A DNA stretch of 64,000 nucleotides, taken from positions 64,001 to 128,000 of the forward strand of contig JAHQWJ010000014.1 in NCBI GenBank assembly GCA_029856125.1, in the 5' to 3' direction. The notes below the pieces were generated by a model that worked only from the letters and a program-made list of their open reading frames with translations, was not told where the DNA came from and did no database searches. Position numbers and translations under genes: made by a program. Source of the DNA: Promethearchaeia archaeon (lineage in GTDB: Archaea; Asgardarchaeota; Lokiarchaeia; Sigyniarchaeales; SOKP01). Every line of letters begins with the position of its first letter. Position 1 is the first letter of the stretch. Below, in pieces: positions 1,131 to 48,416 of this stretch.

Positions 1131-1412
1131 TTTCTCTTCAGTTAGTTTTAATAGTTTAACAATTTTGTTCAAGCAAATGTCAAAATTTAAATTGAAATCC
1201 AGAAGATTAAGAATAATTATTCAAAAAATATTAACCCAAACAAGGAGAGTTTTGTTATCATACATTTTTTTAACTACTGTAATTTGAAACTTTATCGCAA
1301 CATCTATTTGCAAAAGGAGAAGTTTTTTATTAAATTATGATTAAATTAACACAACTAATTGTAATAATCAAATTAGCTAATTTTAAAAATCAAATAAAAA
1401 AAACAAAAATAG

Positions 1413-2738
1413 ATGATTAAAATGGCAGTAAAAGTAGCTTTTATGCAGAGTAGTGATTGCTGGGGATGTCATCAATCCTTATTGAACGCACATTTAGGAT
1501 TGTTGCCAGTTCTTCCAGCGCTCGAATTTGTGTATTGGCCAGCAGTTGTAGATTTCAAACTTGATTCACTAAAAGCGCGACCAGACGGTGATATTCTAGT
1601 AGGCTTCGTAGAAGGAAGTATGAGAACAAAAGCAGATGTAGAAAACGCCAAACTCATGAGGGCTAAGTGCCAACTCATAATAGCTTTTGGTAGTTGTTCT
1701 TGCTACGGCAATGTTCACGGATTAGCTAATGAGTGGGATATTGAAGAAGCTATCAAACGAAAGTATACGCAAGTAGAGTCGATTACTAACGAATCTCCGC
1801 ACGAACCAAAAGAACATATGCCGGGATTTACAGGAAAAATCGTTCCATTGGACGAAGTCATAAGCGTTGACGTATTTATGGCAGGTTGTCCTCCGAAACC
1901 AGAAGCTATCATAAGCGCAGTTCAATTTTTGCTTGGTCAAAAGCCACAGCCAATGGCAGATTTGTCTTTTTGTAACGATTGTTCGTTAAATAACGAAAAT
2001 TGTTTACTTGAAAAATACGAATTATGTTTTGGTCCCATTACTAGTATTGGTTGTACTTTAAAATGTACTGATAATGGAAGCCCATGCGTCGGCTGTCTCG
2101 GACCAGCAAAAACGGTCTCAGCAAGAGCAGAAAAATTGAAAACAATGACACAAAATATGCATCAGCTTAGCTCCGGCGACAAGAAGAATTTACACGAGTT
2201 CTTAACCTTGTTTTTAAATGTACCGTTAATGTCAGGATTTGATTTAGCGGGGGATATCTTAAAACAAGTAAGAAAAACGGGTGAGGCTCAAACCGCTTTA
2301 GCTAACGTACCTGTTGACACGGGAGATATATATGCAAACATCCTGAAATATCTAAAGAACAATAGAGAGTTCATAAGTATTTCAAATGTGTGCGACCAGT
2401 GCGACCTTGAGATCGGAAGTAAATCTCGAATGACGAAAGTTAAACGCGATTACGAAGGACTTCCAAATTCAACCGATTGTTTAATAGAACAAGGTTACCT
2501 ATGTGCAGGTCCGATAACAAGAGCAGGATGTGGTGGTTTGTGTATGAAAGTAAACACACCTTGTTCAGGTTGCTTTGGTCAAACAGCTTGGAATGTTGAT
2601 CAAGCTGAACGCTTTGCTGATGTAGTAACGAAGGGCTTCAATGTGGCTTTATCAAAAGAAGAATTGCTTGCGCAAGTTAAGGATAAGCTCGGCTTCATGG
2701 AAAAGTTTACATTAGCTACAAACAAAAATTATAGGTAG
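1413..2738 (+). CDS. vhuG: F420-non-reducing [NiFe(Se)] hydrogenase small subunit (VhuG/MvhG-like) with duplicated Fe-S module
   Basis: CWGC, VEGS, AFGSCSCYG and GCPP motifs. Two copies of the CxxC..CL....LC.GPIT..GC...C....PCxGC.G module. Confidence 0.88.
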   Translation: MIKMAVKVAFMQSSDCWGCHQSLLNAHLGLLPVLPALEFVYWPAVVDFKLDSLKARPDGDILVGFVEGSMRTKADVENAKLMRAKCQLIIAFGSCSCYGNVHGLANEWDIEEAIKRKYTQVESITNESPHEPKEHMPGFTGKIVPLDEVISVDVFMAGCPPKPEAIISAVQFLLGQKPQPMADLSFCNDCSLNNENCLLEKYELCFGPITSIGCTLKCTDNGSPCVGCLGPAKTVSARAEKLKTMTQNMHQLSSGDKKNLHEFLTLFLNVPLMSGFDLAGDILKQVRKTGEAQTALANVPVDTGDIYANILKYLKNNREFISISNVCDQCDLEIGSKSRMTKVKRDYEGLPNSTDCLIEQGYLCAGPITRAGCGGLCMKVNTPCSGCFGQTAWNVDQAERFADVVTKGFNVALSKEELLAQVKDKLGFMEKFTLATNKNYR

Positions 2739-2749
2739 GTGAAAAAAAG

Positions 2750-4054
2750 ATGGTAAAAGAAATAACAGTAGAACCAGTCACTCGATTAGAGGGACATGGT
2801 GGATTAAGAATTGTCATTGGAGATGACGGTAAGGTAAAAGATGCTCAGTTTAACATAACTTCGACACGATTTTTCGAGAAATTTCTTGAAGGACGTTATT
2901 GCGAACACATACCTAGAATCACGCCTAGAATTTGCGGAATTTGTCCAATCCCACATCATTTAACTCCCACAAAAGCTGTAGAAGACGCTTGGGGCGTTTC
3001 TATTCCAGAACCAGCTCGAAAATTGCGAATTTTGTTACAGAACGCGAAACAATATTCTAGTCATACGTTACATTTCTACGCACTCGCAGCACCTGATTTC
3101 TTATTAGGTCCGTTTGCGGATCCTGCGTTAAGGAATGTCGTTCATGTAATTAACAAAATGCCAGATGTTGGAGCAATGGCTTTGAAAATGATGGATTTCG
3201 GTCAAAAACTCTGTGCGGAGATTGGAGGAAAATCTGTTCATCCTGTTTCTGCGATAGTTGGAGGCATGAAAAAGCCAATGAGCGAAGCTGCTCGGGATAA
3301 GTTTTTGAAAATGATTCCTGAACAAGTCGAATTTGCAAAGAAGACTGTTGAGATCGGATTAAAAGTCGTCACCGATTATTGGGATGTCGTTGCTAATGTA
3401 GGTGTTGTTCCTACTTATTACTTAGGCATGACCAATAAAGGTGTCCATGATATTTACGAAGGAGATATTCGAATTGTTACACCTGATGGAAAGAAGATTG
3501 ATTACGATGTTCATAACTACTTAGACGCACTTGGTGAACATATTCCAGAGCATTCTTATGCGACACACATGTATTACAAGCCTGCAGGATATCCTGAGGG
3601 TATTTATCGTTCTAACACGTTAGCAATGATAAATTGTGCCGATAAAATGGCAACTCCTTTGGCAGATGGCGCACTTAAAGACATGAGAGATAAACTTGGA
3701 CCAATTTCCCATCACACCTTTGCTTATCACTGGGCTCGATTAATTGAATTAGTTGAGTCGATTGAGATGGTTGCGACACTATTACAGGATCCTGACATTG
3801 TAAATCCTGATTGTAAAACATTAGATGTCCAACCAAGAGAAGGAGAGGGTATAGGTATGACCGAAGCCCCGCGGGGCAATTTATTGTACCACATTTGGTC
3901 TGATGCTGATGGTATATGTAAGAAAGCAAATCTCTTAGTAGCGACAAATCATAACATTGCTGGAATTGAGAAAACACTTATGCACGTAGCAAAGCAGGTG
4001 TTTGAAGATAAGGCGTTAGAAGGATTAAAATTACCAGACCCTTGGATTGATTAA
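2750..4054 (+). CDS. vhuA: Group 3c [NiFe(Se)] hydrogenase large subunit lacking the C-terminal L2 motif (VhuA-type)
   Basis: VEPVTRLEGHG, L1 motif RICGICPIPH, EAPRGNLLYH, ANLLVATNHN. No DPCxxCxxH at the C-terminus. AGGTGA SD upstream. Confidence 0.92.
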   Translation: MVKEITVEPVTRLEGHGGLRIVIGDDGKVKDAQFNITSTRFFEKFLEGRYCEHIPRITPRICGICPIPHHLTPTKAVEDAWGVSIPEPARKLRILLQNAKQYSSHTLHFYALAAPDFLLGPFADPALRNVVHVINKMPDVGAMALKMMDFGQKLCAEIGGKSVHPVSAIVGGMKKPMSEAARDKFLKMIPEQVEFAKKTVEIGLKVVTDYWDVVANVGVVPTYYLGMTNKGVHDIYEGDIRIVTPDGKKIDYDVHNYLDALGEHIPEHSYATHMYYKPAGYPEGIYRSNTLAMINCADKMATPLADGALKDMRDKLGPISHHTFAYHWARLIELVESIEMVATLLQDPDIVNPDCKTLDVQPREGEGIGMTEAPRGNLLYHIWSDADGICKKANLLVATNHNIAGIEKTLMHVAKQVFEDKALEGLKLPDPWID

Positions 4055-4080
4055 AAAAAAGAGGAAACCGTGATTAAAAA

Positions 4081-4233
4081 ATGAGCGAAGAAATACCGGA
4101 AGGAGTAGTAAACCTTTTAGAAATGATTGTGCGTTGCTTCGATTGTTGACTATCGTGCGCAGCCCACATAACCGTTGTTAAAGAAAACGGTGAAGAGGTT
4201 TACTCTCGCAAGTTGAACGTTGGCTTAGGATGA
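4081..4233 (+). CDS. vhuU: Selenocysteine-containing hydrogenase subunit VhuU (50 aa, Sec at codon 23; missed by ORF track)
   Basis: MSEEIPEGVVNLLEMIVRCFDC-U(TGA 4147-4149)-LSCAAHITVVKENGEEVYSRKLNVGLG*. Supplies the L2 motif missing from VhuA. The UGA sits at the Ni-ligand position of DP(C/U)xxCxxH. Confidence 0.93.
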
Positions 4234-4290
4234 ATATCCAATAAAAACAATAGATTGGATATAACGCCCCCTGCCCGGGGTAAAAGCCAA
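4220..4290 (+). promoter_or_regulatory. Putative SECIS-like structured element
   Basis: AUGA (4230-4233), then perfect 9-bp stem ATATCCAAT(4234-4242)/ATTGGATAT(4254-4262) with A-rich loop AAAAACAATAG. GC hairpin CCCC/GGGG (4267-4280). Outer stem TTGGCTT(4220-4226)/AAGCCAA(4284-4290). Confidence 0.65.
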
Positions 4291-4329
4291 TAAATATAAA
4301 ATAAATGGAAATGAAAAATTGGAAAAGAC

Positions 4330-4845
4330 GTGAAAAAAATGACAGTAGATTTTGAATTTCGAAAACAAGTTATGGATTATCATATCGGGTCTGATTTAAT
4401 TAAGTATTGTTATCAATGTAGTCGTTGTGCAGATAACTGTCCAATTACTAACGTAACGACAGACTTCTATACGACTACAGGATACAATCCAAGAAGCAAC
4501 ATTCTTAATGCTTTGTTAGGATATAAGGAAGCAATATTTTCATCTGATGCCTTGACCATTTGGGGTTGTACCGTTTGTGATACATGTGATGAGGTTTGTC
4601 CTCAGAATATCGAATTAACTGAGATTTTTACACTATTAAAAAATCAAAGTGTAGCAAACGGAGATGCGCCTGATTTTATCTACTCGCAAGCAAAAGCAAT
4701 TTTTGATAGTGCGAAAGCGATCCCATCTCAACCTGCTATAGAGCGTAGACGAGAACAATTGGGTCTACCCCCTGTTGCAATGCCGGACATTAGTGAACTC
4801 CAAACTTTATTAAAAAATATTGGAGTAGAAAAAAAGCTAAAATAA
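4330..4845 (+). CDS. hdrC: Heterodisulfide reductase subunit C
   Basis: CYQCSRCADNCP and WGCTVCDTCDEVCPQ (2x[4Fe-4S]); RREQLGLPP tail; precedes hdrB. Confidence 0.9.
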   Translation: MKKMTVDFEFRKQVMDYHIGSDLIKYCYQCSRCADNCPITNVTTDFYTTTGYNPRSNILNALLGYKEAIFSSDALTIWGCTVCDTCDEVCPQNIELTEIFTLLKNQSVANGDAPDFIYSQAKAIFDSAKAIPSQPAIERRREQLGLPPVAMPDISELQTLLKNIGVEKKLK

Positions 4846-4850
4846 GAGGA

Positions 4851-5735
4851 ATGATGAGAAAAATGACAGACTATAAAATGTTTGAAGGTTGTACTATCGG
4901 AAACCGTATTCCTTTCATTGAAGCGGCATCCAGAAAAGTTTTTGATAAAGTTGGAATTGAGACTTCACAAACGAACTTTACTTGTTGTCCAGATCCCACC
5001 GGCATGAAATCGTTTGATAACGACGCTTGGCTAGCCATTGGTGCGAGAAATCTATGTTTAGCGGAAGCTGAAGGAAAAGACATAATTTCTCTATGTAATG
5101 GTTGTACTAATACGCTTCGAGGAGTCCAACATCAATTAAAACACGATTCATGGAAAATGGATAAGGTCAATAAAGAGCTCGCTAAGATCGGAAAAGAATA
5201 CAAAGGCACAATAGATATTAAGCATTTCGTTGATGTGCTGAGCGATAAATTAGACAAAGTCAAAGAAGCAATAACTAAACCACTTGACGGTCTAAAAGTC
5301 GCAGTCCATCCTGGGTGTCACTATATGCGACCTGCAGAATGGATGGAATCCGACGATCCTATGAGGCCAACTACGCTAAAGAAACTCGTAGAAGCAAGTG
5401 GAGCGACAGTTGTTGATTACGGGGAGGAAATATTGTGCTGCGGAAGTGCTGTGACTAACGCTTACGAAGAACACGGGTTTGCAAACTTAAAGATTAAGAT
5501 GGACGCTATCAAAAAATCGGGCGCAGATGTGATTGCTGTAAATTGTCCAGCGTGTTATCAACAGTTCGATACGAGACAACGAGATTTAGGTAAGGCATAC
5601 GAGACCGAATACGCAACTCCCGTGTTATATATCACAGAGCTTTACGCATTAGCAATGGGCTTCACTCCAGACGACATCGGCTTAAAATTTCACAGAGTTC
5701 GATTGAAATCCACGTTAGAAAAACTTGGTTTATAA
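4851..5735 (+). CDS. hdrB: Heterodisulfide reductase subunit B
   Basis: Two CCG domains: FEGC..TCCP..ARNL..CNGC and HPGCHYMRP..CCG..CPACYQQFD. Confidence 0.93.
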   Translation: MMRKMTDYKMFEGCTIGNRIPFIEAASRKVFDKVGIETSQTNFTCCPDPTGMKSFDNDAWLAIGARNLCLAEAEGKDIISLCNGCTNTLRGVQHQLKHDSWKMDKVNKELAKIGKEYKGTIDIKHFVDVLSDKLDKVKEAITKPLDGLKVAVHPGCHYMRPAEWMESDDPMRPTTLKKLVEASGATVVDYGEEILCCGSAVTNAYEEHGFANLKIKMDAIKKSGADVIAVNCPACYQQFDTRQRDLGKAYETEYATPVLYITELYALAMGFTPDDIGLKFHRVRLKSTLEKLGL

Positions 5736-5752
5736 CTAATCAAATTTATAAC

Positions 5753-5776
5753 TTTATTTTTTTATTTTTTTTCTCT
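5753..5776 (+). terminator. Oligo-T archaeal-type terminator after hdrB
   Basis: Long T runs about 18-40 nt after the hdrB stop. Confidence 0.5.
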
Positions 5777-5938
5777 TGAGTAGATTACATCAAAAATGAG
5801 AAAGATAAATACAAAAGAGAAAGTGATTGAAAATGAATGAAAAAGAAGAAATAGAATTTTTTAAAGAGGTATTTTATGAAGAGCTTATTTCCGAAATAAA
5901 CATGCGTTTAATTCTTAATGATTCTATTCTAAAATTGT

Positions 5939-11641: not shown

Positions 11642-12331
11642 TCATTTAGATTTGATCAAAAATCCTTTAAGGACTAAGAGGGCTCCAATATCTATAATAA
11701 TTAACGCTAGAATCTCCATCACAATTAACGAGAGCAATCCCCCTGTTAAATTGATAACAAGTCCAAATAAAAATATAATTACTCCTAATGAAAACCATTT
11801 TATTCTTTTTTTGGTTTCGCCTTCTATTTTTCTGTTAATTACGATATATCTATAAACAGCATATATGGCTATTAATATCCGAATGGTATTCACAAAAATT
11901 AACAAACCGGGAGGAGTATGGGTATTGACTATACCAAGAGCGTAATCACTCATATCTAAATACGGAGGTAAGATAAAATATCCAATGCTCATGATAAAGA
12001 ATAAAATTAGCATGGTTCCTAAATACTTCAAGCTCATGGCAATCTTGGTGTGCTTTTCTAACACGAAGAGTGTCATCGGGAGGGAAATTGAGTTAAAATT
12101 AAAAAAGATATGGGCTGTTATCATGAGCGGAATAATAATATCCGAATTATTTAAAATTAAATGGTAAATCGCATAAATTAAAAATCCTAAGGATGAGGAT
12201 ATAAAGTATAAGGCAAACCATTTGTTCAACAAATCACTTTTGTTTAAAAAAAGAACCCGTAATCCAATAATTAGTGCGATAGCGGCTGTGATTATTGTCG
12301 TGATTATTTTTAGTAGATTTAATAGATCCAA
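11642..12331 (-). CDS. Multi-pass (about 7 TM) membrane protein, stand-alone sensor-like
   Basis: About 7 hydrophobic segments; no cytoplasmic output domain. Confidence 0.6.
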   Translation of the reverse strand: MDLLNLLKIITTIITAAIALIIGLRVLFLNKSDLLNKWFALYFISSSLGFLIYAIYHLILNNSDIIIPLMITAHIFFNFNSISLPMTLFVLEKHTKIAMSLKYLGTMLILFFIMSIGYFILPPYLDMSDYALGIVNTHTPPGLLIFVNTIRILIAIYAVYRYIVINRKIEGETKKRIKWFSLGVIIFLFGLVINLTGGLLSLIVMEILALIIIDIGALLVLKGFLIKSK

Positions 12332-12624
12332 ATTATGCAGACTTTATAATTAATTAATTAATTTATTTTTTTTATTGTTATTAGGCATTATATCCTATAT
12401 ATAATTACCTTTTCGATTATCAAGTAATTATAAATGTGGTAAAATTTTTAGTTAAAATCAAGGATTTAAAACGCAAAAATTAAAAAACCTACCGGTAAAA
12501 ATAAGAATTTACTGGTTAATTTCAGTGCAATTTTTATATAATAATTTTACTAATGGATATTTAATCATTATCGCTGATTAGATTTGATAATGAAATTTGA
12601 GAGAAAATCAGAAGGTGACTGAAA

Positions 12625-47862: not shown

Positions 47863-48288
47863 TTAACTAGACTCGTCAGGATTCTCAATAAGTTTTTTAA
47901 CTTCATTAAATTCAGTTAAAACTCCCAGATAAATAAATTCTTTTAGTTCGTTAACATCATCACACTCTTCAATCTTCTCTTCTAAATCGTGATAAGGAAA
48001 CCCTATTCTTGTATTTTGTAAACGAGCTATTTCAAACCCAAATTTTGAAAGAGTGTAACTAACCAGCTCTCTTATGAGTGGCGCTGTTAAGATTTTTAGG
48101 TTAGAGGACGCTATAAAACGGAACACATCGAGCGTCACTTTTTCAGCATCTTTTTCAGAAAGACTCGTCTCTTTTAATAGCCGCTCATATATGCGATTGG
48201 GATCAAATTTGTTTTTCTTTACAATTCCTTCTTTTTTGTCTTTATAAAGAACTTCTGGAAACGATTGAATTATTTTTTCGTCAAACAT
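47863..48288 (-). CDS. Stand-alone ATP-cone domain protein (start revised to ATG 48288)
   Basis: FDPNRIYERLLKET.LS..AEKV..LTAPLIRELV...R..NTRIGFP.HD, resembling the archaeal NrdD N-terminus. Confidence 0.78.
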   Translation of the reverse strand: MFDEKIIQSFPEVLYKDKKEGIVKKNKFDPNRIYERLLKETSLSEKDAEKVTLDVFRFIASSNLKILTAPLIRELVSYTLSKFGFEIARLQNTRIGFPYHDLEEKIEECDDVNELKEFIYLGVLTEFNEVKKLIENPDESS

Positions 48289-48416
48289 GCGAGGAATTTT
48301 AATTTTGATTTTAATGATTAAATTATAGAAAGAAATGCTTTTCATTAAAGACTATTATTAAATTTTTATTAATTCTGTTTATATGTTAATGAAAAGATTT
48401 ACAATATTGGTAGCGG

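Follow-up and report, generated by a model that had tools for sequence, protein, structure and literature searches.

Can a single short gene read UGA in two ways, and if so what feature of its RNA tells the two codons apart? The question is raised by vhuU, a gene of 50 codons within a window of 64,000 nucleotides from a Promethearchaeia archaeon (contig JAHQWJ010000014.1). One UGA lies in frame inside the gene, while the second is its stop codon and at the same time part of a folded region. An initial annotation had placed here a SECIS-like element of possibly variant architecture, lying within a polycistronic mRNA. The reading that best explains the evidence as a whole, and that we consider very probably correct, is that the segment 4219-4291 is the lokiSECIS of vhuU, that it folds as a three-way junction, and that it is located inside a polycistronic mRNA.

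The vhuU gene and its operon

The genes of the operon and the parts of the element are collected in Table 1. When its TGA is read as Sec, the vhuU product includes the sequence D-C-U-L-S-C-A-A-H. This is the C-terminal nickel-binding motif that is missing from VhuA, with U at the position of the first cysteine. We retrieved 80 loci through VhuA, from MAGs of the Promethearchaeota (Loki), in which the VhuA orthologues are 83-97% identical and the in-frame TGA of vhuU is kept in 77. The nearest orthologues of VhuA belong to the isolates bin49 and bin41 (97 and 93% identical, respectively); bin41 is the MAG cited for the largest archaeal selenoproteome. Some copies of the Loki-type operon, with VhuA identities of 84-94%, lie on contigs that are labelled Nanopelagicaceae bacterium, Thermoplasmata, Odin-, Hod-, Hermod- or Thorarchaeota (L002, L019, L026, L040, L070 and others), which suggests mis-binned or mislabelled MAG contigs.

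Table 1. Features of the vhuU operon and of the element at the end of vhuU, with positions in the window.
Feature	Position	Strand	Remarks
vhuG/mvhG-like small subunit, [NiFe(Se)] hydrogenase	1413..2738	+	Pfam Oxidored_q6, 3.5e-22; stop TAG
vhuA-like large subunit without C-terminal metal-binding motif	2750..4054	+	Pfam NiFeSe_Hases N-terminal part, 8.1e-27; stop TAA
vhuU, 50 codons, Sec at codon 23	4081..4233	+	translation with TGA = U
Sec-coding UGA of vhuU	4147..4149	+	83 nt upstream of AUGA core
P1, outer (lower) stem, 5′ strand GUUGGCUU	4219..4226	+	in coding sequence (Val-Gly-Leu codons); 98.2% of cells paired, 76 loci
Junction strand J12 (AGG), between P1 and AUGA core	4227..4229	+	RNAfold structure
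AUGA core motif	4230..4233	+	UGA 4231-4233 is the vhuU stop codon
P2, 9-bp stem (4234-4242/4254-4262) with 11-nt apical loop (4243-4253)	4234..4262	+	perfect pairing, all Watson-Crick
3′ core dinucleotide AA (4263-4264, instead of GA) and invariant C	4263..4265	+	AAC 40, GAC 36 of 76 loci
P3, third hairpin, GCCCC/GGGGU, loop CUGCCC	4266..4281	+	4266-4270 pairs with 4277-4281
P1, 3′ strand AAGCCAAU	4284..4291	+	last base opens TAA 4291-4293, which would end a read-through product
A-rich/AT-rich spacer, SECIS to hdrC	4292..4338	+	without T-run
hdrC-like ferredoxin subunit	4339..4845	+	Pfam Fer4_8; ATG 4339 in frame with GTG 4330; stop TAA
hdrB-like CCG-domain subunit	4851..5735	+	Pfam CCG, 6.9e-29; stop TAA

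Components of the selenocysteine machinery were sought in the same genome. SepSecS is present (contig C101, 451 bits, above the cut-off), together with a PSTK-like gene (169 bits). A search of this MAG for tRNA-Sec returned nothing above threshold, the best score with RF01852 being 30.7 bits, and aragorn lists no tRNA-SeC among 17 tRNAs in total. This may reflect a gap in the assembly or a divergent tRNA; the tRNA set of this MAG seems in general to be poorly recovered by the standard tools. No clear EFSec emerged either, in that the SelB model TIGR00475 singles out no one protein.

The core of the element is that of a published lokiSECIS

Mariotti et al. (2016, Mol Biol Evol 33:2441, PMC4989117) described the lokiSECIS in the lokiarchaeal genes for PrxL, VhuU and HdrA-VhuD. 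In these elements AUGA always precedes a 9-bp stem, which carries an apical loop of 11 nt; the first five bases of the loop are mostly A, and its last position is an ultraconserved G, usually following an A. Directly 3′ of the stem there is GA, or AA in the case of VhuU. The AUGA of VhuU.1 was found to act as a stop codon, and the same study recorded no known SBP2 in Lokiarchaeota (PMC4989117). Huang et al. (2024, PMC11227280) subsequently reported the same features in hundreds of Asgard MAGs, giving the name ‘type I eSECIS-like structure’ to that of frhA and vhuU. They find AUGA_AA in frhA and vhuU of Lokiarchaeia, and a lower stem of the form [U/C]GG...C[C/U][A/G], and note such a stem with UGG...CCA for frhA.

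The segment at the end of vhuU corresponds closely to this description. The initial annotation had read the vhuU stop codon as the UGA of an AUGA motif, followed by a perfect 9-bp stem with an A-rich loop and by AA in place of GA. This is how the sequence stands. There is ATGA at 4230-4233, of which TGA 4231-4233 is the stop codon, and AUGA lies directly before the stem, P2. The 5′ strand of P2, AUAUCCAAU (4234-4242), pairs with AUUGGAUAU (4254-4262), and the apical loop (4243-4253) is AAAAACAAUAG, 11 nt in length, with an A-rich start and a final AG. AA is found on the 3′ side of the stem at 4263-4264, and the distance of 83 nt that had been given between the Sec codon and AUGA agrees with the coordinates. 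The whole is placed where vhuU ends, and the in-frame UGA of this gene is conserved and occupies a Sec/Cys position; P2 has compensatory changes in six of its nine pairs among orthologues and in all nine across genes. Thus the earlier assignment to a eukaryote-like SECIS of the Loki type is well founded, every feature of sequence and structure given by Mariotti et al. (2016) being matched, and the element can be called a textbook lokiSECIS of the published kind. Compared with the lokiSECIS of VhuU in that study (PMC4989117) the core is identical, down to the stop UGA as part of AUGA.

The core, comprising the AUGA, stem, loop and AA with the stop codon within the AUGA, is therefore already known, having been described by Mariotti et al. 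(2016) and restated by Huang et al. (2024). It follows an established pattern, and the vhuU element adds nothing to the argument for an Asgard origin of the eukaryotic Sec-insertion signal. General models do not recognize it. No SECIS family of Rfam was found in the whole window at gathering score, nor between 3800 and 4700 at E values up to 10, where there were chance hits only. A pattern scan of 1301-5900 (+ strand) gave no match to the euryarchaeal form, in which a lower stem of 5 bp or longer is surmounted by a GAA_A asymmetric bulge and three G-C pairs.

The element folds as a three-way junction

Where the structure departs from the published one is in its lower half. The published lokiSECIS has two helices with an internal loop between them, whereas here the 3′ side of that loop contains a further hairpin, P3. 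Folding the single sequence with RNAfold gives the three-way junction as both the MFE and the centroid structure, with two A nucleotides between P3 and the 3′ strand of P1. The junction had been suggested in the initial annotation on the basis of a GC hairpin and an outer stem of 7 bp; the topology stands, and the stem requires correction, since P1 has 8 bp when the closing G-U pair is included. The z-score of the single-sequence fold is –1.55. This is not significant for the sequence taken alone, so that significance must come from comparison.

We therefore turned to the vhuU orthologues. Seventy-six of the 80 loci have distinct vhuU 3′ regions, and pairing was counted by imposing a fixed structure on their MAFFT alignment. 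All three helices are kept in the 76 loci, with covariation in P1 and P2. In P1 98.2% of cells are paired, with two compensatory pairs. One of these (UA 58, AU 15, CG 1) involves the third position of a Val codon, and the other (CG 44, UA 26) that of a Gly codon. As these 5′ partners belong to the coding sequence (...N-V-G-L-G-stop), synonymous substitutions in vhuU are matched by changes in the 3′ UTR. P2 is paired in 95.5% of cells and has the six compensatory pairs noted above. When the partners were slid by 1-3 columns as a control, pairing fell to 25-51%.

P3 is a predicted hairpin of 4-6 bp in 76 of 76 loci, with a central GC in the loop nearly always. There is little covariation in P3 among vhuU orthologues because CCC/GGG is nearly invariant there. 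Moreover MAFFT mis-registers P3 where the loop length varies, so that fixed-structure counts for this helix underestimate its pairing.

The P2 loop begins with AAAAA in 69 of the 76 loci and ends with AG in 61. AUGA is combined with AA in 40 loci and with GA in 36, and the next base is always C. An extra base is present between AUGA and the stem in 22 loci, always together with GA and never with AA, and in two loci, L021 and L027, AUGA is replaced by UUGA. The stop codon of vhuU is the UGA of AUGA in 72 of 75 loci, and in the remaining three it is a UAG just upstream of AUGA (L030, L033 and L068). A stop UGA inside AUGA is thus common, and not obligatory.

How general is the junction among lokiSECIS elements?

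We scanned the 3.69-Mb genome for ATGA followed by nine paired bases enclosing a loop that starts with A nucleotides, and then GA or AA. There were eight clean matches and one slightly relaxed. Eight of the nine elements sit 0-25 nt past an ORF with in-frame TGA. The genes concerned are vhuU, hdrA (676 aa, two U), four that are mvhD/FlpD-like (two to four U each) and two ORFs with no Pfam match. The ninth element comes after a 40-aa ORF, which terminates with a UGA ~40 nt upstream.

Three of the loci deserve separate mention. A hydrophobic ORF of 68 codons (L081:350-553, – strand; G000:C8 ~48149-48352) has one in-frame UGA (...DILA-U-GNRV...) and no Pfam match, with a full lokiSECIS three-way junction 16 nt past its stop. 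We regard it as a candidate small membrane selenoprotein that has escaped annotation. An ORF of 147 codons (L082:360-800, – strand; G000:C122 ~12109-12549) contains two adjacent in-frame UGA codons (...HAD-U-U-ADN...); again it has no Pfam match, and a lokiSECIS lies 22 nt downstream. At L087:234-325 (– strand; G000:C148 near 27155) there is a well-formed lokiSECIS, scoring 38.9 bits with a model derived from vhuU, with no recognisable selenoprotein gene upstream. The only candidate gene is an ORF of 40 codons with a CxxC...CxxC pattern (L087:347-469, – strand), whose last sense position is UGA.

All nine elements fold with both P1 and P3, and their stem sequences are unrelated. The same three-way junction is therefore found after hdrA and the mvhD-like genes of this genome as after vhuU. 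The P3 loops are CGCGA, CUGCCC, CUGC, GCGA, CUGCAA, CUGC, GAGCA, CGCUAA and CCAGCGA; GC occurs in all nine. An attempt to detect the junction from MFE structures discriminated poorly, in that 5-24% of sequences with shuffled flanks also gave a junction and four real elements were mis-scored, and an explicit descriptor was used instead. This specifies a P3 of at least 4 bp with a loop of 4-7 nt containing GC, and a P1 of at least 5 bp. It was written after seeing the nine elements, of which it fits eight, the rate being 0.8% for shuffled flanks and 1.1% for sites taken at random from the genome; the ninth element is matched once a P3 of 3 bp is allowed. Since the descriptor was post hoc it was then applied to the mvhD orthologues of other genomes. 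Among 11 recognised mvhD elements seven fit strictly and one more does so when the GC requirement is dropped, while the remaining three miss by a single pair or a single loop base.

A covariance model built from the vhuU alignment provides a further comparison. It found the SECIS elements of mvhD, hdrA and ORFs of unknown function in 19 further loci. In the resulting alignment of 20 elements there is compensatory change in 21 of 21 pairs, and 91% of cells are paired (P1 95%, P2 93% and P3 80%, with slid controls at 33-51%), in an alignment that favours the structure because it is fitted to the model. The support for P3 thus comes from paralogous elements, by way of this model-fitted alignment and the post hoc descriptor. 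Over the phylum the vhuU-trained model has a match in 13 of the 15 genomes that belong to the same family and in none of 105 from other families; since the model is dominated by vhuU sequence and the filters were strict, the latter figure is no evidence of absence elsewhere.

To judge from this covariation, P1 and the predicted GC hairpin P3 are real parts of the element. Likewise the predicted three-way junction is the common architecture of all the lokiSECIS examined, including those of mvhD and hdrA in other genomes. The variant SECIS architecture proposed in the initial annotation is therefore sustained as regards the junction, and not as a peculiarity of vhuU. The main texts of the SECIS literature, including a 2026 review, contain in the parts consulted no P3, GC loop or three-way junction (structure supplements lay outside this survey), and a literature search gave no paper that joins SECIS, Asgard and a three-way junction. 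[quoted passage not shown]

Could the functional SECIS be the published hairpin only, with P1 and P3 making up a separate structure that stabilizes or processes the mRNA, or part of a terminator? Published models and pattern searches do recover elements without P3, which is G+C-rich like many stabilizing hairpins and hardly varies within the vhuU orthologues. Yet P1 encloses P2, and hence the two cannot be independent elements. Moreover P1 and P3 recur with unrelated sequences at each lokiSECIS of this genome, and again after mvhD elsewhere, while the GC present in every one of the nine P3 loops argues for a specific contact over bulk stability. U-runs never follow P3; where there is a T-run it comes after P1, and a terminator hairpin was rejected on these grounds. 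We therefore regard the separation of P1 and P3 from the SECIS as unlikely, and retain the three-way junction as the architecture of the element.

The element probably lies within a polycistronic mRNA

In 66 loci the gene order is vhuA-vhuU-SECIS-hdrC-hdrB, as it is here. The start of hdrC lies 95-131 nt past the end of vhuU, and none of these loci has a run of five or more T behind the element. Nine loci have the order vhuA-hdrC-hdrB-vhuU-SECIS (L014, L016, L020, L038, L042, L043, L044, L076 and L080), and in these a T-run begins 61-75 nt past the stop, where the 3′ strand of P1 has just ended. In either arrangement the SECIS stays attached to vhuU. A run of T is the usual archaeal termination signal. 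Its position directly after P1 marks this helix as the outer boundary of the element, and the two gene orders taken together with the presence or absence of a T-run support the view that hdrCB and vhuU are co-transcribed in genomes of this kind. Most likely, then, the element is situated inside a vhuG-vhuA-vhuU-hdrC-hdrB transcript, as gene arrangement would indicate, with an internal promoter possible in the AT-rich spacer 4292-4338. In this way gene order and T-runs lend indirect support to the polycistronic mRNA of the initial annotation.

The same loci bear on the suggestion that the structure merely resembles a SECIS and instead regulates hdrC-hdrB, by translational coupling, attenuation or RNase protection. 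Its location between two cistrons, ~100 nt before hdrC, would suit such a role. However, the nine loci in which hdrC-hdrB lie upstream keep the element at vhuU, followed by the terminator-like T-run, and the same element is found after other TGA-containing genes that have no hdrCB downstream. A regulator of hdrC was rejected because the element stays with vhuU when hdrC-hdrB are upstream, and we consider this reading very improbable.

If a SECIS is carried on a shared transcript, the stop codons of the other cistrons become relevant. The published idea is that a lokiSECIS can act on any UGA of its mRNA that is distant enough. Among the vhuA, hdrC and hdrB genes of the loci UGA stops number 0 of 225, all being TAA or TAG, a tally that the relatedness of the genomes inflates; in this genome ~13% of long ORFs end with TGA. 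This is consistent with such stops being avoided where an mRNA bears a SECIS, and agrees with the published idea.

How might one UGA be recoded and the other terminate?

The segment 4219-4291 most likely directs the insertion of Sec at UGA 4147-4149. When this codon is being decoded the element would be ~70 nt downstream, and folded. It could then recruit the Sec-specific elongation factor with Sec-tRNA, either directly or through a putative binding protein, so that UGA would be read as Sec. Within the element P3 would stack on P1 and pre-organize the kinked core. Such pre-organization may be the reason that the weaker A-A variant of the core is tolerated. The conserved GC loop of P3 would serve as a contact site for a protein or for the ribosome. 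For archaeal SECIS elements there is, to our knowledge, no known binding protein.

The situation would be different for a ribosome that has arrived at UGA 4231-4233. The 5′ strand of P1 is in the coding sequence 5-12 nt upstream, and would already have been unwound, while the 5′ strand of P2 would be held in the mRNA channel. The UGA itself would supply the G and A of the core. We infer from this geometry that, with P1 unwound and a strand of P2 in the ribosome, the element would be gone at that moment, and UGA 4231-4233 would terminate translation. For the non-recoding of the AUGA in VhuU.1 a minimal-distance rule has been proposed (PMC4989117).

Read-through of the second UGA would append U and 19 codons as far as TAA 4291-4293, just as the initial annotation had it from the same reading frame. 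Across the loci such extensions are anything between 2 and 50 codons long, with no conservation of the peptide, so that no extended protein appears to be under selection. The C-terminal tail of [NiFe] large subunits is generally removed on maturation. A partial recoding of the AUGA codon to give VhuU with Sec and 19 further residues of independent function is thus the least probable reading of all, and a functional read-through product was rejected: the frame is indeed open for 19 codons, here as in the closest relatives, but the extension is variable in length and sequence, three loci use UAG, the ribosome would have to melt the element to reach the codon, and the tail would be cleaved in any case.

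The lokiSECIS as a possible kink-turn within a junction

A conserved P3 with a GC loop would have practical consequences. It would provide a sharper search model for selenoprotein genes in Asgard archaea, and in the search for the binding factor P3 could serve concretely as RNA bait and as a target for mutation. In addition, the two natural gene orders constitute an argument, from within the genomes, that this SECIS works inside a polycistronic mRNA in which the other cistrons avoid UGA stops.

The eukaryotic SECIS (Rfam RF00031) has a kink-turn core of AUGA/GA that is bound by SBP2. The element of vhuU shares with it the AUGA 5′ of the upper stem, a purine-A 3′ of that stem, the adenines that open the apical loop and the lower helix; like it, the element would act from afar on a UGA to which it lies 3′. 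In contrast to the eukaryotic form the upper stem is shorter (9 bp), there is a third hairpin in the 3′ side of the internal loop and the core has AA rather than GA. In addition the element overlaps coding sequence and probably lies between cistrons.

The euryarchaeal SECIS of Methanococcales and Methanopyrus resembles that of vhuU in being placed just past the selenoprotein gene, and differs in that neither the GAA_A bulge nor a stem with a G-C triplet is found on this operon. An extra outer stem has been described for methanococcal VhuD, with AUGA on one side and GAC/AAC on the other. This matches the P1, AUGA and [G/A]AC found here.

A structural parallel lies outside the SECIS field. The k-junction of the TPP riboswitch is a kink-turn whose non-bulged strand carries a third helix (Wang, Daldrop, Huang and Lilley 2014, PMC4005666). 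Like it, the lokiSECIS has a canonical helix, a loop, a second helix that could open with G-A and A-purine pairs and a third helix in the opposite strand. P3 (4266-4281) is located between the AA-C and the 3′ strand of P1, which is where a k-junction has its third helix. The possible pairs are G4232-A4264 followed by A4233-A4263, the latter being A-G in 36 of the 76 orthologues. By comparison with the k-junction the junction strands differ in length here (5 nt for that on the 5′ side, 1 and 2 nt for those around P3), and the pair at 2b-2n would be A-A. According to earlier work cited in PMC11227280, A-A at 2b-2n occurs in natural kink-turns. Thus the topology of the lokiSECIS matches that of the k-junction, the resemblance being one of secondary structure only.

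With P3 included, the comparison with the eukaryotic SECIS would shift from one of the same fold with a shorter stem to that of a kink-turn embedded in a three-way junction. Tentatively, we suggest that the Asgard SECIS would be a k-junction-like three-way junction in which P3 is required as the site of contact for a factor or the ribosome, and that the eukaryotic SECIS would derive from it, P3 having been lost when SBP2 took over the folding of the kink. We hold this to be quite possible, if short of probable.
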